53,415 nt of DNA from the IMG/VR virus record IMGVR_UViG_3300031658_000010, positions 1-53,415 of that record; one strand, given 5' to 3'. The position numbers and the translations under genes are program-made. The notes under the pieces were generated by a model. That model did not search any database. It was not told the DNA's origin and saw only the letters and a list, made by a program, of their open reading frames with translations. How positions within the stretch are numbered: position 1 is the first letter of the stretch; every line of letters starts with the position of its first letter. Shown piece by piece: positions 4,563-30,700 of the stretch. Source of the DNA: a virus (taxonomy: Duplodnaviria > Caudoviricetes).

Positions 4563-5122
4563 AAACCCACAGAATATTTAATAAAGGACAAACTGTATAT
4601 TGCTTATTAGCATCTCATACAAATCCAAATATACTTTTACCTGTTAAGGGTATTATTCTAGATTCCAAATGGGATCCAGTAAACCCACTCTATCAAATTC
4701 GTCTTGTTAAGTTTTATGATAATATGAAATTCTTAAAACAGCACTTCTTTGATATGAATTTCAGACATGTGTTTCAACACCGAGCAAGGAAGATGATCCT
4801 AAAAGCAGACGACTTTAAAACTACTAGTGTATTAGAGGCTAGGCTAAATGATATAGACCGTGAGAGGTTTTATGTCGTTATAGAATCTGTGATGTGTACT
4901 AAAACTAAAGTTAGTTTATCTGAATTATTTGAAAAGGTTCAATTTTATATGATTTCTAAAAATCTAAAAGAAATACGTGACATTTCAACAAGACCATTCT
5001 TTAAAGGTCCATTGTCACTAGATAGTGTAAAAGAGTTCGATGCTAAGTATAAAAAAGGCTGGTCTGATAAATTCGATAAGAGTAGTTTAAACATTGATAA
5101 GTATCTTAATAGCTTAGGTTAA
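4559..5122 (+). CDS. Hypothetical protein with SH3/KOW-like N-terminus
   Basis: IFNKGQTVY...VKGII...LYQIR pattern; ATGA overlap with the previous gene. Confidence 0.55.
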   Translation: MKTHRIFNKGQTVYCLLASHTNPNILLPVKGIILDSKWDPVNPLYQIRLVKFYDNMKFLKQHFFDMNFRHVFQHRARKMILKADDFKTTSVLEARLNDIDRERFYVVIESVMCTKTKVSLSELFEKVQFYMISKNLKEIRDISTRPFFKGPLSLDSVKEFDAKYKKGWSDKFDKSSLNIDKYLNSLG

Positions 5123-5130
5123 ATATATAA
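5122..5130 (+). promoter_or_regulatory. Putative late promoter AATATATAA, in the loop of an aggtta/taacct hairpin
   Basis: Starts 27 nt upstream of ATG 5149. Confidence 0.65.
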
Positions 5131-5148
5131 TAAAAATAACCTTACTCT

Positions 5149-6942
5149 ATGGGATTTAATCTAAGTGATAGTATACAAAATTTAAATGATGCAATGTTCC
5201 CTGGTCCTAATAAGGCTACGAACAGTATGATTAGTAGTTTTGGTGGCCAGTCAAACGGGTTTGCTAAAGGTATGACAGATAAAACTAGTGATTTGTTTTA
5301 TGTAGAGCGAGCTAAAGCATCAGCAGGTACTGTTGCTATGGGTATTGCAAACCAAGAAATACCACGTTCCATTGCAAATAAATATGCACTGTTTAACTTC
5401 CAGGGCTTTCATGGAAATTTAGCAACACCACAGGGCGATCATTTTATAGATAAAGCAAACAACCCTCTTATGGGTGGTGACGTTGGAGCTAAAACAGTTT
5501 CTATTTCAAAAATTATAAATTATTTTGAGGACAAGTATCCAAAAATAAGTTATAGACCAGCTGATTTTTTATATGGTAAATATTATAAAAAAATACCAGT
5601 TAATCATTTAATTACATTAAGAAGGTTTGCTACTCCTATTGCAGATAACATTTATAATTACAATATCAGACCAAAGGGTGGTGCTAAAGCAGACTCTGTT
5701 GATGCATCGCATGTAGCTGGTGTTACTGCCGTTACTTATCTAGGTGATACTGCTGGTAATAAATTATCGGAGTTGCTTAAATTTTCGTTCGGTTTAAACT
5801 GGAAGAAATTAGAAGCTGAAATGGAAGCAGTTGATACTGGTGGTGCTGGTGGTGGATATACACAGCAGCCATTTTATAGTAAGTTAGGTGGTATTGGGAA
5901 GGCAACTGCTGATGCTGCAAAGGGTGTTAGTTCTGGTGCAAAGTTCAGAGCACAAAATGGATCAGGTTCTTCTACCGCAGATCAATTAGGTACTACTTAT
6001 GCAAATTTTGTACTAGGGCCAATAAATGTAGTAGACGAAACTACAATAAGGGATCGTGGTATAAATTTTGCAAATGACATGAGTCTTACTTTTGAATATG
6101 AATTAAAATCATTAAGTTATGTCAATCCTAAAATAGCAATGATTGATATTATAAGTAACATGCTAGCAATGACTACAAACAATGCCCAATTCTTCGGAGG
6201 TGGTCATAGGTATTATGGTAGTGCAGGTTTTGTCGCTAGTCAATTTGGTGACCCTAGTAAATTAAGAAACGGTGATTTTGCTGGTTATATGGGAAGTGTA
6301 GTTACTGATGTTGAGACTGGTATGAAAGGTTTGTTTGGTGATTCGAGTGGAAACTTTGATGCAAACAGTATTGTAGATGGATTAAAAACTGTAGGAAAAA
6401 CTATGCTAGGTAATATGCTAGGTGGATTTTTAGGTAGCCAAGTAGGTGGACAAACCGGTACACAGGCGACCAAAGCCTTTATTAGTGGTGAACCTACTGG
6501 AGATTGGCATGTAACTGTTGGTAACCCACTTAACCCTATTGTTATGATGGGTAACATGGTTTGTGATAAAGCTACAATGACACTAGGTGCAGGTTTAGGT
6601 TATGACGATTTCCCAATGGAGGTAAAGTTTGATATAGATATGAAACATGGTAAGCCGAGAGATAAAGGTGATATAGAAAATATGTTTAATGCTGGTAACG
6701 GTAGAATATATGCTACAGTACAAGGAGCTGAAGATCTTCTACCAGCAGAAACGCCTTACTTAGGTGGAACTTTTGGTGGAAAGAAAACAAATGGTACTAC
6801 TCACATAGAAGAGTCGACCAATGCACCATCAACTAAAGAAGTAAAAGGAAATGAAGGTTCTAAGAAATCAACAGCTGCCGCGAATACTTCGGTGTCAGGA
6901 GAATATATTAGTAACCTAACCCAGATGTTAATCGACTCATAA
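5149..6942 (+). CDS. Putative baseplate/tail-tube initiator (T4 gp48-like)
   Basis: First gene of the baseplate block; C-terminal tube-like region (FEYELK...WHVTVGNPLNPI...DDFPMEVKFDIDM). Call rests mainly on synteny. Confidence 0.45.
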   Translation: MGFNLSDSIQNLNDAMFPGPNKATNSMISSFGGQSNGFAKGMTDKTSDLFYVERAKASAGTVAMGIANQEIPRSIANKYALFNFQGFHGNLATPQGDHFIDKANNPLMGGDVGAKTVSISKIINYFEDKYPKISYRPADFLYGKYYKKIPVNHLITLRRFATPIADNIYNYNIRPKGGAKADSVDASHVAGVTAVTYLGDTAGNKLSELLKFSFGLNWKKLEAEMEAVDTGGAGGGYTQQPFYSKLGGIGKATADAAKGVSSGAKFRAQNGSGSSTADQLGTTYANFVLGPINVVDETTIRDRGINFANDMSLTFEYELKSLSYVNPKIAMIDIISNMLAMTTNNAQFFGGGHRYYGSAGFVASQFGDPSKLRNGDFAGYMGSVVTDVETGMKGLFGDSSGNFDANSIVDGLKTVGKTMLGNMLGGFLGSQVGGQTGTQATKAFISGEPTGDWHVTVGNPLNPIVMMGNMVCDKATMTLGAGLGYDDFPMEVKFDIDMKHGKPRDKGDIENMFNAGNGRIYATVQGAEDLLPAETPYLGGTFGGKKTNGTTHIEESTNAPSTKEVKGNEGSKKSTAAANTSVSGEYISNLTQMLIDS

Positions 6943-6957
6943 AATAATATAAAGAAA

Positions 6958-7497
6958 ATGAATATTAGGTCTTTAGAATTAAAAAATAAATTAAGCATAG
7001 AAGAAACTGGCGAACAGTACTATGACTTATCAGCCCCGTCTTTTAGTTATAAAAGAGAACTTGGTGTCAAAGCTTTACATTATGTTACTGTAGATCAGGC
7101 TGGTCGTGTTGATAAGATATCCGAGCAGTATTTTGGAACAGGTGCTTATATAGACGCGATATGTATTGTAAACAATATTTTTAATCCATTTTCAGTTTCT
7201 GAAGGTGATATATTAGCAATACCGCAACTCAAGAACGAAGGGCTAGTATATGCAAGACCTAATGCTGCATCACGTCCTAGCGAAACTTTAGCACAATATA
7301 CTAACACAGATAGACAAAGTGCACCTGATCAATCAAGAATACAGAGACTAGCACAATTAGCTAAATCCAAAAAGAATGGTGTTAAATCACCAATCCCACC
7401 AAATATGCTACAACAAGGACAAGAGGCTAAAACATACGCGGGTGGTAAAATTTTATTAGGAGCGAATTTACCAACTAGGACTAAAACAAAAAAATAA
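6958..7497 (+). CDS. LysM-like baseplate wedge protein (T4 gp53-like)
   Basis: HYVT..AGRVDKISEQYFG...ICIVNNIFNPFSVSEGDILAIP is a LysM/gp53 signature. Confidence 0.75.
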   Translation: MNIRSLELKNKLSIEETGEQYYDLSAPSFSYKRELGVKALHYVTVDQAGRVDKISEQYFGTGAYIDAICIVNNIFNPFSVSEGDILAIPQLKNEGLVYARPNAASRPSETLAQYTNTDRQSAPDQSRIQRLAQLAKSKKNGVKSPIPPNMLQQGQEAKTYAGGKILLGANLPTRTKTKK

Positions 7498-7500
7498 GAT

Positions 7501-8982
7501 ATGTCAGAAAGTATAGTTGAAAGAAACATATTAACAATTATAGAACCGTCTATTGAATTGGATCCATTAGAAATATTGGATGCAGAAAGTGGTAGTGATA
7601 ATTCTGATGGATCAACAATGGAACAAAAACCATCGCTGTTTTCTCAAGTAGTTCCTGAGATAAGAGTAAATGGCTACGATGTTCAGATGGATAGATTAAA
7701 TCTATTCTCATTAATGAATGATAAATTCTACCCAACTTGTAAATTACAATTTGCAGATGTTGACGGGTTATTCACTGCAAGGTTTTATCCTAAAGATGGT
7801 GATCTTATGCAAGTTAATATTAGGTCACAGGGTGATGAAACTACATTCAAGCCAATTCGAATAGATTTTACTATCATTGAATGCAAGCCTATTGGTGGAG
7901 GTGGAGAAGCCGCTAACGAATATCTCATAAGAGGTAGAATGTTTGTTCCTAAACTATTTACAGAATCTGTTGATTACGAAGAAGACGTTACTAGCTTTAC
8001 TGCGTTGTCAAATATCGCAGAACGAATGCAATTAGGATTTGCATCTAATGTAGAAGATACTGCAGATGCAATGACCTGGACAAACCCTAATGATACTACT
8101 GAAACTTGGGTACAAGATATTGTAGCAAATAGTTATTTGAATGAAGAAACTTTTTTTACAAGTTACATTGACCCTTACTATTATTTGACTTTAGTAGATG
8201 TTAATAGATTCTTTAGCCAAGAAGGTGCAATCGAAGCTAGTCAAAGTTTTACCACAAATGCTGGTGATACTATGGGGGCAGATGGCGCAGAGGGCCAAAC
8301 TGACGGTATTCCAAACTACTTAAGTAACATGTTACAGTTGCAGGGAACTGCTAGGTATATTGTAAAACACCAAATGGTTAACAAGAGTGGTGCAATAAGC
8401 AAAGCTAATGGCTATAAAAGATATACTCAGTATTGGGACTTAGAATCTAAGGAATGGGTGAGTGAATTTGTCGATCCGTTGACTAACGATACACCTGGTA
8501 TGATACCTGCGACAAAAGGAAGATTGATAGACGGTGAAGTAGAAGGCCCAAGAAATGATCAAGTTAAATATAAGTATCTAGGGACACAGGGTGATAATGT
8601 CCATGCGCAATATCAATACAGTACAGTACTTAATTATCAAAATATAACTGAGATTAATAAGATGGGAATGGTCATATCACTAGATACAATCAATCCTGCT
8701 CTCATGAGATATACTAGAATATATTGCCAGATCTTAGAATTTGCAAGTCCAATAAAAAGTGTTTTACTTGCACCGTCACAAGATGAAATAGAAGGGGATG
8801 AAGCTCCACAGACTAGAGAAGGTGGTCCTGATGAAAATGATAAAGCATCAGAGAGCGGTGTAGTAAACGAATACTTAACTGGGTTTTATGTTATCTCTGG
8901 TGTGGAATGGATATATGCAAAACCTGGACCAATAGGAATGAAATTAACATTACAGCGTAGAGAGTTCACGCCAACAACATAA
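7501..8982 (+). CDS. Putative baseplate hub (T4 gp27-like)
   Basis: Lies between the gp53-like gene and the spike; C-terminal LTGFYVISGVEW...KLTLQRR is typical of hub proteins. Confidence 0.55.
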   Translation: MSESIVERNILTIIEPSIELDPLEILDAESGSDNSDGSTMEQKPSLFSQVVPEIRVNGYDVQMDRLNLFSLMNDKFYPTCKLQFADVDGLFTARFYPKDGDLMQVNIRSQGDETTFKPIRIDFTIIECKPIGGGGEAANEYLIRGRMFVPKLFTESVDYEEDVTSFTALSNIAERMQLGFASNVEDTADAMTWTNPNDTTETWVQDIVANSYLNEETFFTSYIDPYYYLTLVDVNRFFSQEGAIEASQSFTTNAGDTMGADGAEGQTDGIPNYLSNMLQLQGTARYIVKHQMVNKSGAISKANGYKRYTQYWDLESKEWVSEFVDPLTNDTPGMIPATKGRLIDGEVEGPRNDQVKYKYLGTQGDNVHAQYQYSTVLNYQNITEINKMGMVISLDTINPALMRYTRIYCQILEFASPIKSVLLAPSQDEIEGDEAPQTREGGPDENDKASESGVVNEYLTGFYVISGVEWIYAKPGPIGMKLTLQRREFTPTT

Positions 8983-9007
8983 TAAATATAAAAACAATTA
9001 AAAAGAT

Positions 9008-10474
9008 ATGGCAGATTTTTCAAGTATAGCTGGACCGTTTAGTGGTGCATTAGGTGGTAAGTCATTCCCAGCAAGTTATCCATTTGCAAAAAGATTTGTA
9101 CAAAATGCAACATCTGCACAAGGAAGTGGAAATAACGGTGTTACTGCATTAGATGACCCAACTTATTTAGGATTCGGTTTGATGTTTGATATTACGTCTC
9201 CATTATTTAATGCTGCATGGATTGGTGATGTACCACCTGGTGAGGTAGCACCTGAACCAGCAGCAACTAAATTAGATACCTTAGCAGGGAATGTTACTGA
9301 TGGTATTAATGGATTGAAAGATAAGATAGGAGGAGCACTAGGTATAGAAAACTTCGGTGGAGCCAAACCTCTAGAGGCTGGTAATACTGCACCTGCATCA
9401 TTTCCAGCTGAAGCATCAGCAGTAGGCTACTTGCATAAAATTGGGGAAGTTCAGCGAATGAAGTATCTGAAAGCATTTATACAAGGACTATTAGAAGTTA
9501 CTAATACTAGACCATACTACTTCCAAACTATTGCAGGTTTGTTAGAAGCCTGGAGTAAAAGCACCGAATTCACAGAGGATCCTTATACTGGTGTTGACGC
9601 TAAAGATGGTGTTACTATCGGTTGCCTAGAGGCTATAGATTTAAAAATGACTGGGTTGTTTAATTTATATAGAATGGCAGTATATGACGAGAGATACAAA
9701 AGATTTGTCTTGCCAAAAAATTTAATGCGGTTTGATGTATATGTAGACGTTCATGAGATAAGAAGATTTAAAGCAGTGAGAAACTGGCTAAAGGCATTAA
9801 ACCCTAGTGATACAACTAAAGATACTAAAGATTTTGTAAATGAAAATAGTTCACGAATTAGATTTAAATTTACAGAGTGTACATTTGACCCTGCTGCAAG
9901 TGGTAAAGTTTTTGATGGTGTAACTAATGTTGGTGGAAACGTAGCAGCAACCGAAATTAAATTTGGGTATGGGTCACTTGAACTAATGTCGCAGTATTCT
10001 GGGTTTGATGATAGTTTAGATGTTAGTAAACAACAAATTAGTTCTAACCCATCGTTCACAGATAAAATTAAGCAGTTTGGAAAGGCTCAGCTTGACAACG
10101 CAGTGCAGGGTGTTGCTAATAAATTAACATCGGCTGTGAATAGTACAATACAAGGTCTTACTTTGGGAAATGTATTTGGTTTAAGAAATGAATTATTAGG
10201 AACTTTAGCAAACCCGCAAGGTTTACTAAACGCAGCGCTAGGTGCGGCTGGCCAAAGTGGATCATTAGATACATTTGGGCAACCTAATAGAAATAATAAT
10301 CTTGGAGATAATCCATTGAGCGATGCAGTTGCCCCATTACAAACTATTAATTCAAATAGAGCATTTGACGATTCTACGGATAGTCATGGTGGACTAAAAA
10401 CAATTAACGCGTTTGGTGCACCTGGACCTGCGCAAGATAACGGAGGTTTAGCCTCATCAAATATTTTTGAATAA
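9008..10474 (+). CDS. Putative tail-tube-fold baseplate protein (gp54-like)
   Basis: Synteny; tube-like segment (LPKNLMRFDVYVDVHE...FKFTECTF). Confidence 0.4.
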   Translation: MADFSSIAGPFSGALGGKSFPASYPFAKRFVQNATSAQGSGNNGVTALDDPTYLGFGLMFDITSPLFNAAWIGDVPPGEVAPEPAATKLDTLAGNVTDGINGLKDKIGGALGIENFGGAKPLEAGNTAPASFPAEASAVGYLHKIGEVQRMKYLKAFIQGLLEVTNTRPYYFQTIAGLLEAWSKSTEFTEDPYTGVDAKDGVTIGCLEAIDLKMTGLFNLYRMAVYDERYKRFVLPKNLMRFDVYVDVHEIRRFKAVRNWLKALNPSDTTKDTKDFVNENSSRIRFKFTECTFDPAASGKVFDGVTNVGGNVAATEIKFGYGSLELMSQYSGFDDSLDVSKQQISSNPSFTDKIKQFGKAQLDNAVQGVANKLTSAVNSTIQGLTLGNVFGLRNELLGTLANPQGLLNAALGAAGQSGSLDTFGQPNRNNNLGDNPLSDAVAPLQTINSNRAFDDSTDSHGGLKTINAFGAPGPAQDNGGLASSNIFE

Positions 10475-11331
10475 TGAAAGTAAACCCAAGAAATTTCAAT
10501 GCAGACGATTTAAGAACTACTCAATGGGTAGGTATAGTCGAAGATACTGCTGATGATATCTTCGAAGGAAGGTGTAGGATTAGAGTGTATGGTAAAATGG
10601 ATGACAGAGTAGATCCTGAAGATCCTGATAGTGCATACAAAATTCCAACAGCAGCATTACCGTGGTCAAGACCTCATCAACTAATGTATGGCGGTAGTAA
10701 TACTGGTAGTGGTAAATTTGAAATTCCAAAATTAGGATCTATTGTTAGGATGACTTTTGATAATGGAAATCTTTACCAACCAATATATCATGAGAACATA
10801 TATCCATCTGACGAAACGAAGGCTGAGATTGAAGCTTCATATCAAAATTCACATGTACTTATCTATGATACTGCTTTTGGTTTAACAGGTGGTGAAAATG
10901 GTACAGAAGTTACAAATGATAGGGAGGGGGAACATGTTAAAGTTTTCTTCACTGAGGAGAAAGGTGTAATGATTGATTATACGACAACAGAAGGACCTAC
11001 TTCAATTAACATTAAACCAGATAATTCTGTAGAAATACTAAATGCAAATGGTGATTCTATTGTAATGTTAAATGATGGAAATATTACAATGACTCACTCT
11101 GCTGATGTTAATATAAATTGTGTAAATGCTACTGTTACTGCAACTGGAGAAACTCATATTAATTCACCTAGAATTAAATTAGGAGAAGCAGCAGCTGAGG
11201 CAGTTATTAAAGGTGATACTTTTGCAGGGATATTTGATGCACATACACACATTGGAAATTTGGGAGCACCAACAAGCCCACCGACATCAGTCACTGCACC
11301 ATCACTAAGTGCAAAGAATACTACCGACTAA
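10474..11331 (+). CDS. Baseplate central spike (gp5/gpV OB-fold plus beta-helix), no lysozyme domain
   Basis: WVGIVED..DIFEGRCRIRVYG...LPW...IPKLGSIV OB-fold motif; C-terminal HTH (HxH) tip motif. Confidence 0.85.
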   Translation: MKVNPRNFNADDLRTTQWVGIVEDTADDIFEGRCRIRVYGKMDDRVDPEDPDSAYKIPTAALPWSRPHQLMYGGSNTGSGKFEIPKLGSIVRMTFDNGNLYQPIYHENIYPSDETKAEIEASYQNSHVLIYDTAFGLTGGENGTEVTNDREGEHVKVFFTEEKGVMIDYTTTEGPTSINIKPDNSVEILNANGDSIVMLNDGNITMTHSADVNINCVNATVTATGETHINSPRIKLGEAAAEAVIKGDTFAGIFDAHTHIGNLGAPTSPPTSVTAPSLSAKNTTD

Positions 11332-11338
11332 TATATAA
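11330..11338 (+). promoter_or_regulatory. Putative late promoter AATATATAA
   Basis: Starts 28 nt upstream of ATG 11358. Confidence 0.6.
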
Positions 11339-11357
11339 ACTATAAAACAATTTAACT

Positions 11358-11723
11358 ATGCCACTATTAACAGACTTATTAGCAACACAACTGGACACTG
11401 CATTTAAAGATGCTTTAGAGATAGGTTTACATGATGCATTTAGAGAATTTCTAAATTTTCAACAAACTGCAACTGATGGGTCAAGCCAGGACCAGTTCGA
11501 GGCCGCTGTTGATTCAGCTGCTAGTGTTGGTGGGGCAATTGGTGGTTCTACATTCAAAGATGCGGCTGCTGATGCAATCGAAGCATTCGTAAAATCTGGT
11601 ACAGTTACAACAGTTGTAGCAACAGCCGTTGTGGTAGCGACAACAGGAACGGCAGTCGCACAAGCAGGTAGTGGGACTGGTGTTGGTTCAGGAACAGGTG
11701 CACCTTTTTCTGGAATATCATAA
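11358..11723 (+). CDS. Small Ala/Gly/Thr-rich protein downstream of the spike (putative spike-associated)
   Basis: AADAIEAFVKSGTV...GTGTG pattern; position. Confidence 0.5.
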   Translation: MPLLTDLLATQLDTAFKDALEIGLHDAFREFLNFQQTATDGSSQDQFEAAVDSAASVGGAIGGSTFKDAAADAIEAFVKSGTVTTVVATAVVVATTGTAVAQAGSGTGVGSGTGAPFSGIS

Positions 11724-11740
11724 TACTTAATTTAATAATG

Positions 11741-11801
11741 AAACAAATCTATAAGTGGTGTGTACAATAATAAATACATCCAGTAGATACCTAATATATA
11801 A
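11741..11801 (+). promoter_or_regulatory. Two putative promoters upstream of S1: AAACAA-N16-TACAAT (11741-11768) and AATATATAA (11793-11801)
   Basis: Both motifs are visible in the 108-bp intergenic gap. Confidence 0.55.
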
Positions 11802-11831
11802 TACAGATAACAACCTTTAAAAATAAAAAAA

Positions 11832-12971
11832 ATGACTGAGCAAGAAATCACAATTCAATTAAGTGATGATCCATTTGATACTAAAGTAATTAAAGTACAA
11901 GTTCCAAAGGGGACAAAACTAATGAGTACTGAATCTTATGCTGCTGATGTTTTAGCAATGTATGAACTTTCAGATTCTGCTATTCAAAAAACTCAATTAA
12001 CAGAAGACAATATATCTTACACTACATCTGGTGAAATTACTTATATCTCGCCTGATAGATCAAGAGCAACTATTGATACAAACTCTAAATATACAGCAAG
12101 TTGCTTTTTAACAAAAGAACCTGAGTATATTGTTGAGCAGATGCAAGTTGGTATGGAGATCGATGTAAAGATCAAAACTTCAAAAAATGGTGATGTTATA
12201 GCTTCCATTAATGATGCGTTGATGGATATTAAGTTAAAAGAAATTAAGGATGCTATAGGTAATAAAACGGTTGGTTTTACTGCCATTGTTAAAGAACTTA
12301 TACATGGTGGTTATTGGGTTGATGTTGCAGGTATTAATTGCTTCATGCCAGGATCTCTTGGTGGTTTAAATAAATTACACGACTTTAATTCTTTAGTAGG
12401 TAAAGAAATTATTGTAATGCCAATAACATATTCACAAGACAAAGCTACAATTGTAGTATCTCACAGAGAATATCTAAGAACAATGATACCAACCAGGATT
12501 CATGAATTGGATGAAAATATAAAAGAAGCTAGAACTGGGTTTGTAACTGGTATAACTAAATTTGGTGTATTTGCCCAATTTGATGATTGTTTAACTGGTT
12601 TAATTCCTAGAGCTGAATTAACTGATAAAATGAAAGAGGCATTAGATAATAGAGATATTAAAGCTGGTGATGAAATAGAATTCTGGGCTAAAGAAATAAT
12701 TTCAGATAAGAAGATTATATTAAGTCAATTAGGTCCTAAGGTTGATCTATGGGATGGGATAGATGAAAAATATAAACCTATGATGATTGTTGAAGGTACC
12801 GTTACTAAGATAACTTCATATGGTGCATTTGTCGAACTTGAAAAAGGTATTAGTGGTTTAATCCACAAATCTAAACTAAAAACTGCTGACTTGACCAAGG
12901 GCGATGTTATCAATGTTAAAATTGGTAGTGTTAATGTTAGTGATCGTAAGATTACTATGAACGTGGCATAA
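11832..12971 (+). CDS. rpsA: Ribosomal protein S1 (bS1) homologue with about 4 S1 domains
   Basis: GGYWVDVAGINCFMPGS...IVVSHRE (domain 2-like), TGFVTGITKFGVFAQF...GLIP, VEGTVTKITSYGAFVELEKGISGLIH...RKITM. Confidence 0.85.
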   Translation: MTEQEITIQLSDDPFDTKVIKVQVPKGTKLMSTESYAADVLAMYELSDSAIQKTQLTEDNISYTTSGEITYISPDRSRATIDTNSKYTASCFLTKEPEYIVEQMQVGMEIDVKIKTSKNGDVIASINDALMDIKLKEIKDAIGNKTVGFTAIVKELIHGGYWVDVAGINCFMPGSLGGLNKLHDFNSLVGKEIIVMPITYSQDKATIVVSHREYLRTMIPTRIHELDENIKEARTGFVTGITKFGVFAQFDDCLTGLIPRAELTDKMKEALDNRDIKAGDEIEFWAKEIISDKKIILSQLGPKVDLWDGIDEKYKPMMIVEGTVTKITSYGAFVELEKGISGLIHKSKLKTADLTKGDVINVKIGSVNVSDRKITMNVA

Positions 12972-12977
12972 CCGCAA

Positions 12978-13008
12978 TCCTGGTTTAGAATATATAAACA
13001 AATCAGGA
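12978..13008 (+). promoter_or_regulatory. Hairpin (tcctggttt/aaatcagga) enclosing the putative late promoter AATATATAA (12989-12997)
   Basis: 9-bp stem with one G-U pair; the 3' arm ends 5 nt before ATG 13014. Confidence 0.6.
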
Positions 13009-13013
13009 AATAC

Positions 13014-14306
13014 ATGTACACTAACGAACAGCTAAATGCTATATATGCATCAAAGATTGGTTTAGAATTTGAATTCTTTGCTAATGAAGGAATGGATGAA
13101 GTTAAACGAAGCCTTTCCCAGACTCTAAATAAACAAATACGAGTCGAGGAAAAGGCACACAGCGACTTTAAACCTAGTGATGAAATCTTTAAACTAGAGC
13201 CAGATAATTCTGGTGGATCTGGGATGATCGAATTAGTAACAGGCCCAATGCCTTTTGTTGAATCAAAGTTAATCATTGCAAAAACTCTAAAATGGATCAG
13301 GGAGAATGGATCTACTAATGACAGATGCTCTATTCACATTAACATTGCATTCGATGGACACAAACTTGGAACCGCTACTAATGTATCATCTTTGGATATT
13401 GGTAAGTTCGTTCTTAACTTCAACGAAAATGCGGTATACGAAGCATTCCCTGATAGAAAGGATTCTGTTTATGCCAAATCTATAAAATTTATTGTACCAT
13501 TAAGTGGAATGACACAACCGTCTCCTGAGAGAATTTCATGGAAGAATTATATGTTTGTGTCTGAGAAATACTATGGAGTAAACTTTTCTAAAATACCACA
13601 GAACTATATTGAATTTAGATATCTAGGTGGTAAAGATTACGAAAAGAAATATAACACTATAATGAATATGACAGAACATTTTGTTGTATCTTTATATGAA
13701 AGTTTAGTTGACCCTGTTTATAATGCAGAAGATATTAAAAAATTAGATGTTATATTAGAAAAGCATAAAGGTATCGTAGAATCTTACAAAGCATACCGAA
13801 CATTCAAAAGAAATTTTCCTAAAGTCAAATTAATGGTTGATTTACAAACCTATGACCAGATAGTCGAAACTTACTTCCCAAAAATGAGGGAAAAGATATT
13901 TGAACTATTAACAAAAGCAGGACTTACTGAAGGTTTAGTTAATTATGATTCTGATACTGGTAGGATGCAGTTAAAAAATGCTGAATTAATGAAATGCTTT
14001 GAAATACGAGGAATTGATATTGTCGATTCTAAGATTCAAGGAAACCTCATAGGGTGTGATATATTTAGTACTGAATTAATAAATTCCTCAATGATGGAAT
14101 GTAACTTATTCGGTTCGACTGAAGTTGCTGATTCTAAATTAGAAGATTCTTACGTTAGTAAAAATGTATTGTGTAAAGATTCTTATGTATTTGGTATAAG
14201 AGGTGTATTCAGTGGTGAAATGGATGGTGGTATATTTAGAAAAGGTAGAGCAACGAAACTTGCAAGATTTGAAAATACTGAAATTATTGAAATAGAAAAA
14301 ATATAA
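13014..14306 (+). CDS. Putative amidoligase (COOH-NH2 ligase, Amidoligase_2-like) with a C-terminal beta-helix-like tail
   Basis: GLEFEF, EPDNS..GMIELVTGP, CSIHINI, KYYGVNF, IEFRYLGG motifs. Confidence 0.8.
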   Translation: MYTNEQLNAIYASKIGLEFEFFANEGMDEVKRSLSQTLNKQIRVEEKAHSDFKPSDEIFKLEPDNSGGSGMIELVTGPMPFVESKLIIAKTLKWIRENGSTNDRCSIHINIAFDGHKLGTATNVSSLDIGKFVLNFNENAVYEAFPDRKDSVYAKSIKFIVPLSGMTQPSPERISWKNYMFVSEKYYGVNFSKIPQNYIEFRYLGGKDYEKKYNTIMNMTEHFVVSLYESLVDPVYNAEDIKKLDVILEKHKGIVESYKAYRTFKRNFPKVKLMVDLQTYDQIVETYFPKMREKIFELLTKAGLTEGLVNYDSDTGRMQLKNAELMKCFEIRGIDIVDSKIQGNLIGCDIFSTELINSSMMECNLFGSTEVADSKLEDSYVSKNVLCKDSYVFGIRGVFSGEMDGGIFRKGRATKLARFENTEIIEIEKI

Positions 14307-14312
14307 AATAAC

Positions 14313-15599: not shown

Positions 15600-15612
15600 A
15601 AAAATAAATTGA

Positions 15613-21717: not shown

Positions 21718-23832
21718 ATGGCAACAACGCCCTTAATTAAAACACCGCAAGCAGATGGTGGAACATTTTACACATTCTCATCTTCTGCCAAAGACTTATC
21801 TAGGACCCTCAATAATGACGATCTTAAATTAGTCTTTTCTAAATTCGTGCTTCTTAATCTACCAGATATGGATAGGTTGGACCCAACGACATTTAGTCAA
21901 TATCAAAACTATATGCAGTTTGATACTATTGATGGTGCTATTTTTGCAGGCGGCTTAAAGGGTGATCCTAATGTTAACTTTACCGAGAGCCTTCAGAATT
22001 ATGCATTAAATTTAGAAGAACTCATTATAAGTGATGTAGGGTATGATAACACTACAAATTTAACTGTTACTGAGCGAGTATTCTTTAAGTGGTTAAAGGA
22101 AACTGGTGCTATGAGGTTTAGAGAGGCTACTGTATTAGAGCAAGTAGGTGGTTTAACAACGCCAAGATTTTGTGAGGAGAATGAGGTTACAACAGGAACA
22201 CGACAATATAGACCAGTTGTAAAGTATATCGGTGCTATAGATATTGTAAACAATGTAGATAAAGCAGGAGAAGCTTATACTGAGTTGTATATTAATGTCC
22301 CTACAGAGGTAGGTAAGACACCTACAATACTCTTTGATTCTATATCTGACACGAACTATCAACCATCACTAAAAATACAAGGAACAAGTGAATGGATTCT
22401 AGGTAGAAATTCAGCTACTATACACCCACAAGGATTAGATATTTTAGCTTGGTACGATTATGACCAACCTTTACAAGGCCCTAACTCTGCAGGTTATACA
22501 GATCCTAATGCAAATTGGATGGAGGAATCAACACCACCAAATACAATAGATGCGTACTTCACAGAGCCAACATCGTTTACTAGCGTATTAAATGCTAATA
22601 TTAGAAAATACCCTGCTGATTATGGTAACCCATCTGGTTACAATGGATCTGCATATGTAAGAAGTGAACTAGATGGAATTAGTATAGATTTTAATCCTGC
22701 TGATTACCAACAGATTGCTATAGATTCTGCAATAAGCACAATACCACAGTTTAATGGTAGTGATTTAGCACAGTCGTTTGAATTTAATGCAGTGTTAGTT
22801 TATTATGATATGGTCGACTTGAGTGATTCGTCTAAGACAACTACTAACTTATATGGTATTTTATTATTAGATAATGTAACGCCTACAACAGATGGTGGAT
22901 ATATTCAAAGATACCCAAAATATAAACCTAACACAACTACTGGACAAAACGGTAATAGTTATGGCTTCAAAATAAATTTAAGATTCGATGCTTCACCAGG
23001 ATCTGCTGGGATTGATACAATCGTAAATGATTATAATACTTTCTCAATGGGGCTTTTCTCTGATGCATCTGCTCAGTTACAAGCATCTGCTCAAATATTC
23101 CAAAGACAACAGCTAGAAATTGCTGATATGGAAATTAGATTAGCTGCAATGGAAAATACTTTAAATTCTGTTAGTACTTCAGCATTCTTACAATCACAGA
23201 TCACTGCACTAAATACTAAAGTTGATAATGCATCACTTGCCTTTGCGAGTAGTACTACACTGTTGGATCTTATTGCTAAAAACTCTGATGAGATTCAAGC
23301 ATTAGCTAACGGTGACGTTTCAACTAAATTACAATACAATACTTCAGTAGTACAACAAGGAACTGGTATTACTATTAATACTAACACACCAAACCAAATA
23401 CAAGTATCAAGTAATGTGCAGGCATACAACTTAATGGTTCCAGTAAATAATAATGATATACAAATAACTACAGCTAACCCATTAAACTTAAATGTTGTAA
23501 CACCACAAGTATTCACTGAATTAGATACTTATACTAATATGCTAAGATTAGACACCATTAACGAAGCTGGTGGCGATCTTAATATCTATATAAATGATAC
23601 AGGTACTCAGTGGAGAACCGGGCAAACTTTAAGATTAACATTCAACAATGCTTTGTTAATAGGATCAAGAAATATAAGATTATACACTGATGCACCTAGT
23701 AGGCTAAATAGTGGATCATACGGTAAGTTAGCTGCAAATATACCAAATACAGATTTAAGTAATATTCCAATCATTGATTTAATTTGCACAGAGCAAGGAG
23801 TATTAACTTTTGTCTATGACATAGTCAAATAA
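21718..23832 (+). CDS. Putative structural protein with coiled-coil segment (704 aa)
   Basis: Context; T/N/S/G-rich composition. Confidence 0.5.
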   Translation: MATTPLIKTPQADGGTFYTFSSSAKDLSRTLNNDDLKLVFSKFVLLNLPDMDRLDPTTFSQYQNYMQFDTIDGAIFAGGLKGDPNVNFTESLQNYALNLEELIISDVGYDNTTNLTVTERVFFKWLKETGAMRFREATVLEQVGGLTTPRFCEENEVTTGTRQYRPVVKYIGAIDIVNNVDKAGEAYTELYINVPTEVGKTPTILFDSISDTNYQPSLKIQGTSEWILGRNSATIHPQGLDILAWYDYDQPLQGPNSAGYTDPNANWMEESTPPNTIDAYFTEPTSFTSVLNANIRKYPADYGNPSGYNGSAYVRSELDGISIDFNPADYQQIAIDSAISTIPQFNGSDLAQSFEFNAVLVYYDMVDLSDSSKTTTNLYGILLLDNVTPTTDGGYIQRYPKYKPNTTTGQNGNSYGFKINLRFDASPGSAGIDTIVNDYNTFSMGLFSDASAQLQASAQIFQRQQLEIADMEIRLAAMENTLNSVSTSAFLQSQITALNTKVDNASLAFASSTTLLDLIAKNSDEIQALANGDVSTKLQYNTSVVQQGTGITINTNTPNQIQVSSNVQAYNLMVPVNNNDIQITTANPLNLNVVTPQVFTELDTYTNMLRLDTINEAGGDLNIYINDTGTQWRTGQTLRLTFNNALLIGSRNIRLYTDAPSRLNSGSYGKLAANIPNTDLSNIPIIDLICTEQGVLTFVYDIVK

Positions 23833-23855
23833 ATAATAAAATTGAAACTTATATA

Positions 23856-26800
23856 ATGGCTGCAACACCTAAACCAACTGGAACAAGTAAAGGAACTAAC
23901 AATTCAATACAGACGATGCTTCCTGAATTGTTAAGACTTTTTAACAATTCACTTGAGAGCTTTGAAAAAGTTAATCAAGCAATCACATCAAGTAGAGATT
24001 CTGTAACTGTTAATATACAGAACAACGACGGGACTAATTCTAGAATTACTATCCCAAGCTTTGGTTTCCTTAAAAATTCAGTTGACAGATTAAATACAAA
24101 CATCAACACTATTACTAATTTTAATGATGCTAATAGTTCTATAAGATTACCTGATGGTACCTTTAGGAAATTAGTATTAGCAAAGTTACCAACTGAGGCG
24201 TTCGATGTAACTGCAATGAATTCAGTAAATGAATTCAATGTTAAACCTAACTGGTTTTTTGAAGAACTAATTAATCCTTTACTTTATATTTCTTTTGATA
24301 TTACAGGACAAGCACCAATTGATACCGAAAGAGCAATTGTACAGAGATATATCCTAGATACTAATTCACAAAGTAAGATTAACTATTTTATTAATCAGTA
24401 TAATGGAAATGCTAACATCTCGTATGATACATTCCTACAAGAGATTGTTGAAAAGAATATATCATATGTTTTAGATGAAGCAGTTGTAGACTTACCACCA
24501 AGAGACAAGAGGTACTCTGGTGAATTTAGTGTAATCCGAATTGGTGAAGAAAGTATTACTGAGACTGTTAATGGTGTTTCACAAACAGTAGTTCAAAAAT
24601 TATATAAACTTAATAAAGTATTCTATACAGATTCAGAAGCTGATTTTGCTGACACTATACAGCTTAAGGTTGGTGATAGTCTAGAGGTCGTATCGACGCC
24701 GATTGATACTAGATATACAGTAACCCAAATAGACACCAGTACAAACTCAGTAACAGTAAGATTACAAGAAGGTTCGCGTACAATAAGTATTGGGGCTGGT
24801 GTATTAAAGATAGGATCAAGCTTAAATGATCTTTTAGAAGTTGACGTTACTGTTGGTTTTAATGAAAGATGTGTAACCTTTATCAAACCAATTGATCCAG
24901 ATTCTAAAATACCAGCAGTTAACTGGTCGCCTGGTAGTGGTTTTTATACTAATGACTTAACTACTATTGATACAAATGGTACACAACAGAACTTAGCTGA
25001 TTATTATCAGAGAAATGCAGTTGATTTTGGTAGATATCTTTTGTCATTTGCAGAAGATAAGATACCTACGAGTAGAGAAGGATTAAAACCTAACGCTCCG
25101 GTGCTGTCACCTGATGATTTTACAGTATCACTGATAAATGGACAAGTTAGTAACTCAGATGCTATTGTACAACTTAAAGATTTAAACAATCAGAAAAATA
25201 CGATTCAGTCTACATTAACTGAGTTAGATGTTGCAATTGCACAGAGTAGAGAAAAAATACAATCAACGAATTATTCTACTGAAGTTGAAAGAGATGCTGA
25301 TAAGAATGCATTACAAGGTCTTATTACCGAACGTGCATCACAGGCAAAATTATATTCATCAGTAGTTACCGAGATAGATGCATCTGCTAGTGACAATTCA
25401 GTAAGTAGTGTATCTCCTAAATATAGAGTAAGAGGGTTCTGGTCAATGCCAGAAGAAAAGTCAGCACCTGAAACAGGCGTACAGGATATAATAAAATTTA
25501 CATACCGTTACAGGTATCTGTCTGCTGATGGTGCAGCCAATCCAGTAAATCAGTTTACTTATACTGACGGTAGTGGAACTAGCCAAGGTGCATTTTCAAA
25601 TTATGTTATTATTGACAGTGTATTAAGACCTAGGACTAAGAATAGCATTACAGGTTTATATGAATGGGTTGCTATTGATGATGATAATGCAGACTCGGTT
25701 AATATTAACCAATTAGATATACCAATTAGAAAAGGTGAGCAAGTAGAAATACAAGTAACATCTATATCAGAGGCTGGTTGGCCATCAAATCCACTAAAAA
25801 GTGATTGGAGTACAGCAGTAAGAGTTGAATTTCCAGCCGATCTAGGATCTGATAGCGCGATAGATTCTATATTAGCACAGAACAAAGAAGACTTATCATT
25901 AGTTGCATTAAATCAAAACTTAGAATCTATTGGACTACCAACACATCTAAGTAGTTCTTTTACTGCAAACGAAACATACTTTGCTCATTCAACACCAGTA
26001 ATAGCATCAGGATTTTTATCAGAAAATCAAACACCTATTGATCTATTTACTAAGTTGAATGAAATGCAAAATCAGATAGATTTATTTGCTGAGATATTAA
26101 ATAGTACACAGGGTGAATTAACTACAACATTAGTTGATGATACTGGAAATACTTTTAATTTAAGAAGGAATGCAGTTACTAAAGTGTTCGCAGGTTTTTA
26201 TTCACAAGAAATAAAAGACTTAGACGACCCAAGAGGTGCAATCATCTCAAAAACATATTTCATTAATATTGCAAATTCTTCACAGACTGCATTACAATTA
26301 ATAGCTAGAATTACTGGTAACAGATCAAGAATGGTTAAACAATCAGAAAACGCTGGATCTTATTCAACAACAAATACAACCGCAGTAAGTAGTGGTGCTA
26401 CGATACTACCAGCAACATATGCATGGCTAGATAATAGCGCAGCTAACCAATCAAATAGTAGAGCTACGTACAGATCTGATGATGTAGATTATAACACAAT
26501 TAGAAAATATGATCTTACACCGATTCTATTGACTAACCCTTCAGTAACGGCTACAACAAAATATGGACAGACTGTTTCACTAGCACCGTTCCAATCAACA
26601 CAGAACAAGAATCAGTACATTTATAGTAGGTTTAGTGATGTTTCTGCTGAGGGTAATTTTTATAGTTATATTAATCCAAACGACGAATTCACAGTAAACT
26701 TAGATACTGTAGAAAATATTTATAGTGCAACTACCGATACTGGTGTTGCATTACCAGGTACTGAGTTTATATGGGGTGGTGGATTTACTGCAGGTGGCTT

Positions 26801-27734
26801 ACCAACAACAACACCGAGTTATCCTACTACTGATGAAGTAGTACAAGTTTCTATTGCTCATCCGTGGTTAAAAAGTTATAAAGCATACACTAACGCATAC
26901 AAAGCACTAACTGGTGATCTTGTAACATTACCAGCATTTGGTACAGCAGTAAACTGTACATCAGGCGCTGGTGGGAATGGTACAGCAGCAGTTATGTTTA
27001 GGCAATCTAAATTTGCACCACTTAAAATTGATGATACTTATGGAAAAGAACAAGCAATATATTTAAATGAGAATGTTGCTGATCTTACTGCATTAGCTAC
27101 ATCATTAGGAAATGTTGCGTTTGATAACGGTATACAAACTCTGCAGGCTAGCCCATCATTAGTTAATATTGCTAACTTATCTATTATTGATTATAGCAGA
27201 AATGCAAAAACATCATTTGAGGGGTTTGATCAATATACACTAGGTAAACAATCATGCGGATCTTATCTATTCGTTTCATCTGATAACCATCAGAATATAC
27301 AAGTTGATGGTGATGCAATACAGTCCTATGAAGTAGTTGCATTCGGCCAACAGAATGCTATAAGTATTCCATTAGTATTCCAGTATAGGATGTCTGATTA
27401 CTTTGGTGTTACATCTGGTAGTGGATTAGGAAATGTTGCAGGTGATTCATCAGGTAACACAGTTAATCTTGCTTATGCTAAAAGGGTTGGTATCGACATA
27501 TACCCAAACAACAGCGATGTTGTACAATTTGATATTGAAATCTCTGCTAACTATAGATCTGATAGGTTAAGTATTAAACAATTTCCACAGGCAACTGTAA
27601 CAAAAGGACTGAATGATTTAGAAAAAGTTGTAAGAGGATTAAGACCTTCATTAAATCAAGCAGCCATATCAAGAAACACTGCTCATAATGGAACGTCATG
27701 GGGTGGTAATACTGGTATCGGTGGCGTGATGTAA
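23856..27734 (+). CDS. Large putative structural protein (1292 aa; coiled coil plus FN3-like segment)
   Basis: QVEIQVTSISEAGWP..KSDWS is FN3-like; context. Confidence 0.5.
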   Translation: MAATPKPTGTSKGTNNSIQTMLPELLRLFNNSLESFEKVNQAITSSRDSVTVNIQNNDGTNSRITIPSFGFLKNSVDRLNTNINTITNFNDANSSIRLPDGTFRKLVLAKLPTEAFDVTAMNSVNEFNVKPNWFFEELINPLLYISFDITGQAPIDTERAIVQRYILDTNSQSKINYFINQYNGNANISYDTFLQEIVEKNISYVLDEAVVDLPPRDKRYSGEFSVIRIGEESITETVNGVSQTVVQKLYKLNKVFYTDSEADFADTIQLKVGDSLEVVSTPIDTRYTVTQIDTSTNSVTVRLQEGSRTISIGAGVLKIGSSLNDLLEVDVTVGFNERCVTFIKPIDPDSKIPAVNWSPGSGFYTNDLTTIDTNGTQQNLADYYQRNAVDFGRYLLSFAEDKIPTSREGLKPNAPVLSPDDFTVSLINGQVSNSDAIVQLKDLNNQKNTIQSTLTELDVAIAQSREKIQSTNYSTEVERDADKNALQGLITERASQAKLYSSVVTEIDASASDNSVSSVSPKYRVRGFWSMPEEKSAPETGVQDIIKFTYRYRYLSADGAANPVNQFTYTDGSGTSQGAFSNYVIIDSVLRPRTKNSITGLYEWVAIDDDNADSVNINQLDIPIRKGEQVEIQVTSISEAGWPSNPLKSDWSTAVRVEFPADLGSDSAIDSILAQNKEDLSLVALNQNLESIGLPTHLSSSFTANETYFAHSTPVIASGFLSENQTPIDLFTKLNEMQNQIDLFAEILNSTQGELTTTLVDDTGNTFNLRRNAVTKVFAGFYSQEIKDLDDPRGAIISKTYFINIANSSQTALQLIARITGNRSRMVKQSENAGSYSTTNTTAVSSGATILPATYAWLDNSAANQSNSRATYRSDDVDYNTIRKYDLTPILLTNPSVTATTKYGQTVSLAPFQSTQNKNQYIYSRFSDVSAEGNFYSYINPNDEFTVNLDTVENIYSATTDTGVALPGTEFIWGGGFTAGGLPTTTPSYPTTDEVVQVSIAHPWLKSYKAYTNAYKALTGDLVTLPAFGTAVNCTSGAGGNGTAAVMFRQSKFAPLKIDDTYGKEQAIYLNENVADLTALATSLGNVAFDNGIQTLQASPSLVNIANLSIIDYSRNAKTSFEGFDQYTLGKQSCGSYLFVSSDNHQNIQVDGDAIQSYEVVAFGQQNAISIPLVFQYRMSDYFGVTSGSGLGNVAGDSSGNTVNLAYAKRVGIDIYPNNSDVVQFDIEISANYRSDRLSIKQFPQATVTKGLNDLEKVVRGLRPSLNQAAISRNTAHNGTSWGGNTGIGGVM

Positions 27735-27758
27735 TTTAAACGTTGCCTAATTATTAAC

Positions 27759-27798
27759 TTTATCTTTTGGTGAATATATAAAAAAAGTAAAAGATAAA
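27759..27798 (+). promoter_or_regulatory. Perfect 10-bp inverted repeat (tttatctttt/aaaagataaa) enclosing the putative late promoter AATATATAA (27773-27781)
   Basis: The 3' arm ends 1 nt before ATG 27800. Confidence 0.65.
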
Positions 27799-27799
27799 T

Positions 27800-30700
27800 A
27801 TGGCTGAAAAACTGCTCGACCAAGCATCATACAGTATTGCAAGAACTAATCCTAAATTAACAGCTAATGTTAAGATAGTATCTGATGGAACGGATATTTA
27901 CTTAGAGTCGTTCAGTGCAAACACTAGATTAGCTTCCCAAAAATTTAAGGCCTTTAAGGTTGATGGAACTAGTACATATGACCAAGATGTATTTAGATTC
28001 TTTGATAGCGGAAAATTCCCAATAGAGTCAGCTTACGAAATTCATCAAGAATATGAAGATACTGCAATCTTATCTGATTATGGTAACCAATATGAAATGT
28101 TTTATTCAGCAGGTACTAGATCTATTGCATCAGAATCATATACACAAAGCCTAGGGACGTTAGCACCGCTATGGCTAAATGAACAGATACCTAGCTCGTT
28201 TGTAATTTTTAGATTAGACAATCCAGTTGGAGTTAACAATCTAAATGCAAAGGGTGAGAATGACGGGACGGTAGACGCGCAAACATCAGCTAACTTCACA
28301 AAGCAAGTATTAGAAAATTGCACAGCAATCAAAACGTTTGATCTAACAGAAGGTACTTTATTAGGTGCTTATATTAGAAACTATAGAAACCAAGAAGAGT
28401 TTCCAACAGTACCACTTAACATGACATGGAGAAAGGATGAGCCAATCTTATGGAATGGTATATCCTATAAAAATGGTGGATTTACTAGCAGTGGTAATTT
28501 TGCATATGATGATATGGTGGTTAAAGATTCAACTATTATACAAGACGAGTATTTATTTACACAAGGTTTCCAGAATAATGGAATACTTTTAGCAAATCTT
28601 TTAAATTTAGAATTCTTATTCGATGACCCAACTGCTGATGACTATACTATTAATAGATACTTTGGTATGTATGTTAATGAAATAGAAGAAGGTAGGTTTG
28701 ATTTGTCCGGTGAAGCATTTTATAAAAATACAGAAAAAACTCAGTTACCTAAAATAAAAACTATAACAGAAGTATCTCAATATTTAAATACTCCATTTGA
28801 AATTACAAACGAGGATGGTATTTTATTATTTTTAGATCCTGTTAAAACTACGACAGTTACAGGCCTACCTACACCGACTCGAGTAAATGAAGTTGAATCG
28901 GTATTTTATGTTAAAGATAAAGAAGACGACTACCATACAGTTAAAAAGGGTGGTACCTGGGGTAAAGATCAGATTAGATTATTTGATACTAAAGTAGACG
29001 TTTCATTATTTACTGGCTATAAACAACCTGATACCTTTGCAAATGCAAGTATTATAAACCACGAAGGTTTTGCACAAATGTACTTGAAAATTGTTGGAAA
29101 TACAGTACAACCTGTACCATACCCAACAGTGACAGCTGTTGTTAATGGGCAACAAATTAATGTAGCTGCTGGTGATACTATAAATATTAATAGTATTAGT
29201 AATACCATTGCAGTGGGCCGAGTTGTAACGTCTACACATAGCAGTGTTAAAATACCACAAGGTACTACAGTGACAACAATAGGATCGTCTACAATGACGC
29301 TAAGTAACAAAGTATCATTACTTGATAATGCGTTACTATTCTTTACACCAGCAGCAGTTCCTGATAACCAAGTACAGGAAGGTTCTAAAATATCTTTCTA
29401 TGACGGTGACCCTAGTATTGCATCAAACTTGACTGGTGAAATTTTTGCTGATAGTACATTAGCACCAATTCCTGGTAAGTCTTTTGAAAAATTCTTTAAT
29501 CCCAACGGTACTACACAAGAAGTTGCACAGGCTATAACATCAGCAATCAACACAGGTATATCTGAAAATGTTAGATTCTTTACAGCTACGTTTAATGATA
29601 GTACTGTTTACATAAAGTCAAGATTTAGTGGTTCAAGATTTAATCAACTTAGTTTTGGTTTGGACGTAACATACCCAGAACAGCTTACACAAATACAGTC
29701 ATACCCAACAACAGTAGTAGCTACCCCAATCAAAAACTTTGTTGGTGGTAATGATGTTACTCGTAGTTTACTTAAAGTAGAGAATAGTGACCAAGATAGA
29801 TTTATTAATGGAAACTTTGTACAGACTACTGGTGGCTATACTAATATTGGAGACTGGGTTCCATACACAGAAGAACCTATATACAATGGCTTAAATCAAA
29901 TTATAGGATATACTGATATTAATAAATATGTAGTCATAACTTGCAATGATAACCAGATAATGGTTACAAGATCTAATCAAGTAGCACTATACTCAGATTA
30001 TAAACCATCTTTTGGTAGATTTTCATTCTTTGATGTTAAAGATTTTGATTTTGATTTTTATAGTACGCTGTATAGCGAACAGGGTGAATTGGATTACGAG
30101 ACTACTGAATACAACCAACAATCAGTGACATTATCAGGTTCGGTATATGAAGGAGTTAGCATGAACCCACAAATAAGGAGTTTTTATGACAATGGTGGAT
30201 TTTATAATCTTATCGGTTTATTGGGTGATGCTGAGGATGAGAACCCAACCAACGAGTATATTAAAAGTGAATATAATAGACTTGAAGAAAATTACCTGAC
30301 ATCACAAGCTAACATATCAAGAATTGCTCCATACATTAATAAATGGGCATGGGTTAATGATGGTAGAGATGTGAGAAACCACCCGTATCGATTAGATATA
30401 AACCAAGCATTTGGTCTTAACAATTTTGCTCCATCCAGATGGGACTTAGTACAAGAAGCCAGTGGCTTCACCCATGAATGGTATTACCTATCAGAGTTTC
30501 CTAATTATTTTACACAAGACGCTATAAAAAGTTCATGGAGTTATATTGACACTGCACCGACAGATAATACACCAGCAAATATTATGACAGGTGCAGCGCT
30601 TATACCTGGTACATTCCAAGATGTTACAACAGATAACTTCAACGATTATTTTATTGTGCAGCGATTTACTACTAATGGAATTACCGAGATTGATAGGCAA

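Follow-up and report, generated by a model that had tools for sequence, protein, structure and literature searches.

Hairpins enclosing T4-like late promoters may tie translation of two genes to their own promoters in a marine giant phage contig

The DNA analyzed here, IMG/VR record IMGVR_UViG_3300031658_000010 (the window, an entire contig of 53,415 nucleotides [nt]), contains two + strand genes whose translation starts are each preceded by a hairpin with a late-promoter-like motif in its loop. At the first of these, locus ii (ATG 13014), the 5′ arm tcctggttt of what we call the type A hairpin (12978 to 12986) lies upstream of the 9-mer AATATATAA (12989 to 12997), which sits in a 13-nt loop and is invariant in 28 of 28 aligned relatives. 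The 3′ arm, aaatcagga (13000 to 13008), is part of the leader and contains the predicted late transcription start site (TSS, ~13002), giving a stem of nine pairs, one of them G.U, ahead of a gene for a 430-amino-acid (aa) amidoligase-like protein (13014 to 14306). The amidoligase assignment is a lead only, its sole basis being ESM Atlas neighbors, of which those at ranks 1 to 3 carry PF12224 in 11-19% of members; Pfam returned no match, and a PDB sequence search returned only a hit of 0.069. At locus iii (ATG 27800), the arms tttatctttt(g) (27759 to 27769) and (t)aaaagataaa (27788 to 27798, ending 1 nt short of the ATG) form a core stem of ten perfect pairs (27759-27768 with 27789-27798) around a 20-nt loop. 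This loop holds the motif at 27773 to 27781 (AATAAATAA in many relatives), the predicted TSS is at ~27786, and the gene that follows encodes a 1651-aa protein (27800 to 32755; phrog_31887, function unassigned). An initial annotation of the window had described such promoters in the loops of start-covering hairpins as a repeated RNA timing switch, at these two loci, at locus i (ATG 5149), and, more weakly, at 52314; its arm, ATG, and motif coordinates for all four were correct when checked in the sequence. We consider it fairly probable that the conserved hairpins at 13014 and 27800 gate translation according to whether the RNA comes from the gene's own T4-like late promoter.

The motif itself behaves as the initial annotation had proposed for a T4-type late promoter, given that it is enriched, strand-specific, and placed a short distance before start codons. 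AATATATAA occurs 12 times in the window, always on the + strand, against an expectation of 4.28 ± 2.16 (0 of 100 shuffles reached 12), and nine of the 12 copies end 13-30 nt ahead of the ATG of a tiling + strand open reading frame (ORF). With A or T allowed at the fifth base (AATAWATAA), there are 13 copies on the + strand of the window and none on the − strand. G001, a relative of 181,663 bases, has 45 on + and 3 on −, and 34 are followed, at a distance of 6-45 nt, by an ORF with 60 codons or more. The form AATAAATAA, present in many relatives at the orthologous site, holds the core of the T4 late element, which is given as TATAAATA in PMC3014915; T4 late promoters are described in PMC7892883 as having a −10-like element and no conserved −35. 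A gene of G001 (15042-15320) matches phrog_234, "late sigma transcription factor," the PHROG family of T4 gp55 (E = 3.8e-14). The same 9-mer also stands ahead of the 27800 orthologue in LR756500, in which the orthologue of 23856-27734, the neighboring gene, encodes a product that shares 40% identity with its counterpart in the window. From these sequence comparisons, it is credible that AATATATAA is a T4-like, −10-only late promoter, and a gp55-type late sigma factor would be the reader of AATAWATAA promoters. By analogy with −10 elements and following T4 geometry (PMC7892883), we placed the late TSS 6 nt past the eighth base of the 9-mer, which predicts starts at ~5135, ~13002, and ~27786 for loci i, ii, and iii, respectively. 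Elsewhere in the window, a tandem direct repeat (CTAAAGTAAAATATAAA, two copies, 47293-47333) lies directly before ATG 47334, with the motif-like AAATATAAA in each copy.

The setting in which these leaders would be translated is probably one without Shine-Dalgarno (SD) pairing. To judge from its proteins, the contig belongs to a marine giant phage: the nearest relative of its 1292-aa protein is in LR756500 (an uncultured phage of 462 kb), followed by proteins of phages of Flavobacterium, Tenacibaculum, Chryseobacterium, and Prevotella and of Sphingomonas phage PAU. DNA of the window is also present in marine metagenomes, the data sets listed for window positions 5000-14999 included none of RNA, no near-identical phage records were found, and PHROG scans of the first 40 kb returned tail fibre, baseplate hub, and baseplate wedge proteins, followed by SSB, primase, and helicase. 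In G001, nearly all long ORFs lie on one strand (coverage per 10 kb of 0.27-1.0 on + and 0-0.2 on −). An SD-like 4-mer at −17 to −4 was found in only 1 of 44 genes of the window, in agreement with the SD-less leaders that had been noted, and A makes up 59% of the 15 nt that precede starts, compared to 37% overall. Both properties fit hosts of the Bacteroidota type, and translation in Bacteroidetes is reported in PMC6847099 to be tuned by mRNA structure, with SD pairing not used.

We calculated opening energy as the cost of making positions −18 to +15 single-stranded for the 44 genes, once with 100 nt of upstream sequence included (long RNA) and once for the predicted late RNA. The locus ii start was the most costly of all on the long RNA (rank 1 of 44), at 12.8 kcal/mol compared to 1.5 kcal/mol on the predicted late RNA, and locus iii required 9.1 kcal/mol on the long RNA (rank 6) and 4.7 on the late one. 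For seven other promoter-preceded genes of the window, the long-minus-short difference was −0.6 to 2.4 kcal/mol. The computed energies place an RNA helix over the initiation region on long transcripts. In the window, the AUG is 1-6 nt away from the stem; in relatives, it is itself paired in a second type of stem at locus ii and in several locus iii variants (both described below). With the TSS ~6 nt past the −10-like element, the 5′ strand would lie upstream of the late TSS in every stem type, and, with the motif placed in the loop or in an arm, RNA from that promoter would lack the 5′ arm, as the initial annotation had argued. What we infer from these stems and energies, and from the conservation and turnover described below, is an effect on translation. 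At genes 13014 and 27800, the hairpin would join the short leader, which has no SD, or the start codon itself to a stretch that lies upstream of the late start, so that RNA entering from upstream has both arms and a closed initiation region. RNA from the gene's own promoter would begin inside or just before the 3′ arm and, having no 5′ arm, would be open, and translation would thus be tied to that promoter, following the logic of T4 e, soc, 49, and I-TevI.

The case is strongest at locus ii, for which IMG/VR and metagenome scans gave 143 relative loci (protein identity, 68-97%). The two arms stand out as conserved islands among variable spacers in the closer clades, and RNAalifold predicted the stem from 24 distinct sequences (−5.53 kcal/mol). 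One-sided changes in the stem still pair (C-G became U.G three times, and G.U became A-U twice and G-C once), and its base is lengthened by pairs that differ from clade to clade, up to 14 bp. In clades that have no type A arms, the promoter block ([tt][a/g]GAATATAT) instead pairs with ATGTATTC[t/c]AA, that is, with the start codon and codons 2 to 4, in a second stem of 8-13 bp (10-13 bp in 9 of the 10 clade contexts having only this stem). Among 49 distinct contexts, 35 have the first stem only, 10 the second only, 4 both, and 0 neither. Another explanation for such stems is chance or hitch-hiking, in which AT-rich intergenic sequence yields short inverted repeats and each arm is conserved for its own reason, the pairing being incidental. 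Retention of one of two unrelated stems in 49 of 49 contexts argues against this, as does the rarity of the second stem among controls: the same promoter block matched 627 control ATGs over at least 10 bp at only 4 and over at least 12 bp at 0. Of 36 distinct contexts of locus ii, 35 had a long-minus-short difference of 4 kcal/mol or more (median, 10.5), whereas control genes behind promoters in the same relative loci reached it in 1 of 43, 2 of 23, and 0 of 40 contexts (0-9%). Taken together, these comparisons make a strong case that the locus ii hairpin gates the translation start. An outer helix that pairs GCAT (12966-12969, + strand) with ATGT (13014-13017, including the start codon) was considered and set aside; 87.5% of its cells are paired in relatives, yet it has 0 double-sided changes.

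At locus iii, 95.2% of cells are paired across 30 distinct sequences with at least 72% protein identity, and three transitions are absorbed as wobble pairs. Taken alone, these closer relatives establish conservation and are not proof of structure. A profile search found clades at 68-72% identity in which the 5′ arm has another sequence and is shifted upstream by ~9 nt (ttaattttcac with gtgaaaattaa is one such pair of arms), and other distant clades have a duplicated arm or arms that extend to ATGG. In 12 distinct distant sequences, 88.9% of cells are paired, compared to 38-63% with the partner slid, and the covariation score is 0.205, compared to 0.145 ± 0.020 in shuffled alignments (reached by 4 of 500 shuffles). 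One pair is A-U in 8 of these sequences, G-C in 2, U-A in 1, and G.U in 1, and is unpaired in 0; new arms that carry a pair in three Watson-Crick types and never leave it unpaired are difficult to reconcile with incidental pairing. Of 31 closer contexts, 25 had a long-minus-short difference of 4 kcal/mol or more, as did 11 of 15 distant ones. Support for gating of the translation start by the locus iii hairpin is thus moderate, and at both loci the closed-long, open-short property proposed by the initial annotation is kept across relatives, even where arm sequences have been replaced. One relative of locus iii, L178, has a different upstream gene and neither the motif nor the 5′ arm, with the leader kept; the position of this junction suggests a recombination joint exactly at the promoter.

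Several observations weigh against gating, some of them in favor of chance. The window-type stems lack classical covariation, with 0 double-sided changes in the stem core at locus ii and 0 at locus iii. Five relatives (L144, L145, L166, L152, and L162) each break a locus iii pair, and the singleton L207 breaks one at locus ii. RNAalifold gave the locus iii stem only −1.78 kcal/mol and predicted no pairs from a mixed alignment of locus ii. In a 19-sequence subset of the second locus ii stem, the pair between the base before the motif and the third position of a serine codon is A-U in 6, G-C in 3, G.U in 4, and unpaired in 3, and covariation in that alignment was not significant (97 of 500 shuffles). 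The relatives are also phylogenetically dependent, and the context counts therefore overstate the number of independent events. With a mock start set 14 nt ahead of each ATG, differences of 10.4 and 7.8 kcal/mol were seen for two genes that have overlapping starts and no motif, and four other motif-less genes reached 4.2-5.3, similar to locus iii. Finally, when the 9-mer was kept unpaired and pairs were allowed only between the 30 nt to its left and the 35 nt to its right, loci i, ii, and iii folded at −9.4, −11.2, and −9.6 kcal/mol, respectively, but 10.6% of 7,621 window positions, mostly coding, fold as well as −9.4, and finding 3 such sites among 12 has a P of 0.13.

The outcome of such comparisons within the window varies with the null. 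The nine remaining motif sites folded at 0 to −6.3 kcal/mol and have no comparable flanking repeat, and dinucleotide shuffles of each site's own AT-rich flanks gave p values of 0.058 (i), 0.015 (ii), and 0.045 (iii), with p = 0.01 for the third-lowest energy and p = 0.11 for the summed energy. When pairing on the 3′ side was allowed only as far as ATG+12, 3 of 11 window sites reached p ≤ 0.05 (binomial, 0.015; Fisher, 0.13), and whole 90-nt folds were unremarkable (z = −1.58, −0.97, and −1.86 for i, ii, and iii). Within the window alone, the evidence that the stems exceed chance is suggestive and not decisive. Chance as a full account of loci ii and iii nonetheless seems unlikely to us, given the retained and replaced stems in their relatives.

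Locus i resembles loci ii and iii in its energies and differs in its conservation. The initial annotation had placed there the stem aggtta 5116-5121 / taacct 5137-5142 around the motif at 5122-5130 (5116 to 5142, + strand), extended by atag 5109-5112 / ctat 5147-5150. The minimum-energy fold is instead a 13-bp stem (5112-5124 with 5154-5166, + strand) that encloses the promoter, the leader, and ATG 5149, in which the end of the upstream gene, its stop codon, and the first three motif bases pair with codons 2 to 6. It is because of this stem, and not those annotated, that the opening energy is high (12.7 kcal/mol long and 5.6 late, a difference of 7.0; rank 2 of 44 on the long RNA). In these computed energies, the start is more open on the predicted late RNA than on the long RNA at all three loci, at locus i through a different structure. 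The annotated stem is weak and does not hold in L064, which at 93% protein identity is the closest relative; across relatives, 74.9% of its cells are paired, with one pair U-A in 16 sequences and C-G in 12, compared to 58.4% for the 13-bp alternative. Only 6 of 24 distinct relatives reached a difference of 4 kcal/mol (median, 2.2), and the value in G001 was 1.5. The 5′ arm is coding (Leu-Gly-stop), which, like the count of 6 in 24, speaks for incidental pairing. Locus i may be active in this genome through the 13-bp stem, and it is not supported as a conserved device. The fourth case, ccattta 52314-52320 / taaatgg 52365-52371 (52314 to 52371, + strand), is present with a 44-nt loop and the motif ATATATAG. 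Its fold is at chance level (z = +0.58, with 142 of 200 shuffles folding as well) and its opening energy ranks 32 of 44, and we rejected it as chance.

Nor is the arrangement a general feature of these promoters, as the word "repeated" had implied: p values of 0.05 or less were obtained for 3 of 11 promoter sites in the window and for 4 of 34 in G001. The best three shuffle p values among the 34 sites of G001 belong to the orthologues of ii, iii, and i. A candidate fourth switch, outside the region covered by the window, precedes an 86-aa ORF at G001 28061-28344 (L197 8061-8344), where a hairpin with the promoter in its loop pairs the start codon (12.0 kcal/mol long and 1.5 short; shuffle p = 0.027); this ORF has a weak PHROG match to a membrane protein (E = 0.002). 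A homing-endonuclease-like ORF at G001 36986-37453 (L197 16986-17453; phrog_314, E = 1.1e-9), a gene class gated by such hairpins in T4, lies behind a late-type motif with a difference of 4.1 kcal/mol, and the gp55-like gene of G001 is itself behind a late-type motif at G001 15020, with a difference of 4.3 kcal/mol. A 120-aa gene at 15237 (window 15208-15237) shows a difference of −0.2 in the window and a switch in 14 of 34 distinct relatives (median, 3.6 kcal/mol). At G001 151112 to 151162, an 11-bp match between promoter and start was found, yet there is no long/short difference, and we did not retain it.

We considered that the inverted repeats could act as DNA, binding a dimeric regulator or modulating promoter use with no RNA structure involved. 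The promoter is placed symmetrically between the arms, whose spacing at locus ii is ~two helical turns, and a palindrome made imperfect by a single mismatch is a form typical of operators. I-TevI, according to PMC2988022, binds an overlapping site and represses its own late promoter. However, the arms aggtta, tcctggttt, and tttatctttt are unrelated and share no half-site, the substitutions keep G.U-type pairing on the + strand only, and the replacement stems use coding sequence (ii) or displaced arms (iii), which is unlike a protein site. Given that the arms are unrelated between loci, that the + strand substitutions are wobble compatible, and that the replacement stems involve coding sequence, we favor a structure in RNA over a DNA-bound protein and regard the latter as very improbable.

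A further possibility is that the hairpins are real and serve another purpose, such as protection or definition of the 3′ end of the upstream message, processing, or termination, with occlusion of the start as a side effect. Both conserved hairpins directly follow the upstream stop codon, and at the orthologous junction in LR756500, a single case, the motif comes after a strong hairpin that resembles a terminator and has a U-run, and no occluding stem was seen. As with intrinsic terminators of the kind at this junction, the hairpins described here lie between same-strand genes and would keep upstream transcription from driving the downstream gene. Unlike such terminators, they have AU-rich stems without G+C richness, loops of 13-20 nt in place of a short loop, and no U-run, and they would act on translation and not on elongation. 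The terminator scan was blank at 12978-13008 and 27759-27798, and the second stem of locus ii, in which the promoter pairs with the start codon, follows no 3′-end logic. A canonical shape does occur at window 49436-49462 (by eye: aggtgag, an 8-nt loop, ctcacct, and six T), just before a late-type motif at 49478, from which it appears that the phage does use ordinary terminators elsewhere. We therefore give a separate 3′-end function little chance; the LR756500 terminator and the hairpins are consistent with being two alternative blocks to expression by read-through.

If the hairpins do gate translation, the proposal of the initial annotation that they act as timing switches finds less support than the gating itself. 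A late-type motif at 11793 to 11801 (+ strand), kept in 40 distinct relatives, would yield RNA that runs into locus ii, another at 23828 to 23836 (+ strand, AATAAATAA) would yield RNA that runs into locus iii, and the nearest promoter upstream of locus i, at 3441, is of the same late type. The terminator scan found no site on the + strand between 11793 and locus ii or between 23828 and locus iii; before locus i, it gave one 5-bp terminator-like site (2988-3002), from a total that was at or below chance. Scans of the window for host-type early promoters placed none upstream of the loci; sigma-70 consensus scans returned 58 and 62 sites compared to 62.7 and 58.8 expected (at or below chance), and a Bacteroidota-type pattern matched once compared to 2.5 expected (92 compared to 77.8 for the −7 element alone). 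A second intergenic motif class, ATTATATTTA, occurs in the window only at 2849-2858 and 48672-48681, with one copy 2.3 kb upstream of locus i and none near locus ii, two loci that had both been described as lying just downstream of "class 2" promoter units. It is probably another promoter class and perhaps the class 2 in question; in intergenic regions of G001 at ~105-124 kb, ATTATATTTA is preceded by AACTTTTT...TTCAGAA within a repeated block of ~90 nt. Given that the upstream promoters are of the same late type and that no terminators intervene before loci ii and iii, much of the read-through RNA would be late as well, and the hairpins may sort RNA by origin and not by time, setting dosage by transcript origin. 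We tentatively raise the possibility, which we hold to be less likely than not, that in these one-directional, terminator-poor genomes with SD-less translation the hairpins are an insulator and not a clock, uncoupling the dosage of selected genes from heavy late read-through of neighboring structural genes. Selection for this property would then have been strong enough for the arms to be replaced several times (loop-promoter stem, promoter-arm stem, and displaced arms), and in a more distant relative a terminator would be the alternative.

In T4, as set out in PMC3014915 and PMC2988022, e, soc, 49, and I-TevI have initiation regions that are closed when the transcript comes from an upstream promoter, and late promoters in or beside the 5′ strand give RNAs without that strand, which are translated; the T4 precedent was thus cited correctly, and the wider T4-type set also includes I-TevII, I-TevIII, segB, and Aeh1 mobE. 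The loci described here share with T4 a late promoter (gp55-type, here predicted) directly upstream of the gene and a helix, here computed, that closes the initiation region on the longer RNA, and the second stem of locus ii, like that of T4 gene e, has the promoter as its 5′ arm. They differ in that the lineage is very distant from T4, this being a marine giant phage for which the closest relatives with names are phages of Bacteroidota, and in that there is no SD to hide, so that what the stem covers is either the start codon itself or a leader rich in A. Leaders of only ~12-14 nt are predicted, the gated genes encode an amidoligase-like enzyme and a giant protein of unassigned function, and transcription from upstream is probably late as well. 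The gating described here is predicted from sequence and computed folds. No prior description of such gating in PAU/pT24-type or jumbo phages was found among the records listed by a literature search.

In summary, our analysis would, if correct, extend a classic control device of T4 to an uncultured and abundant marine phage lineage. The probable hosts start translation without SD pairing, a setting in which mRNA structure is the main lever on initiation, and it is this SD-less setting, together with the evolutionary turnover of the arms, that gives the system additional interest. The replacement of arms with the property kept amounts to a natural experiment on the evolution of such switches, and it raises the question of whether gating by transcript origin sets protein dosage rather than timing. 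Hairpins of this kind would also offer a practical rule by which the regulation of late genes could be annotated in phage genomes from metagenomes.

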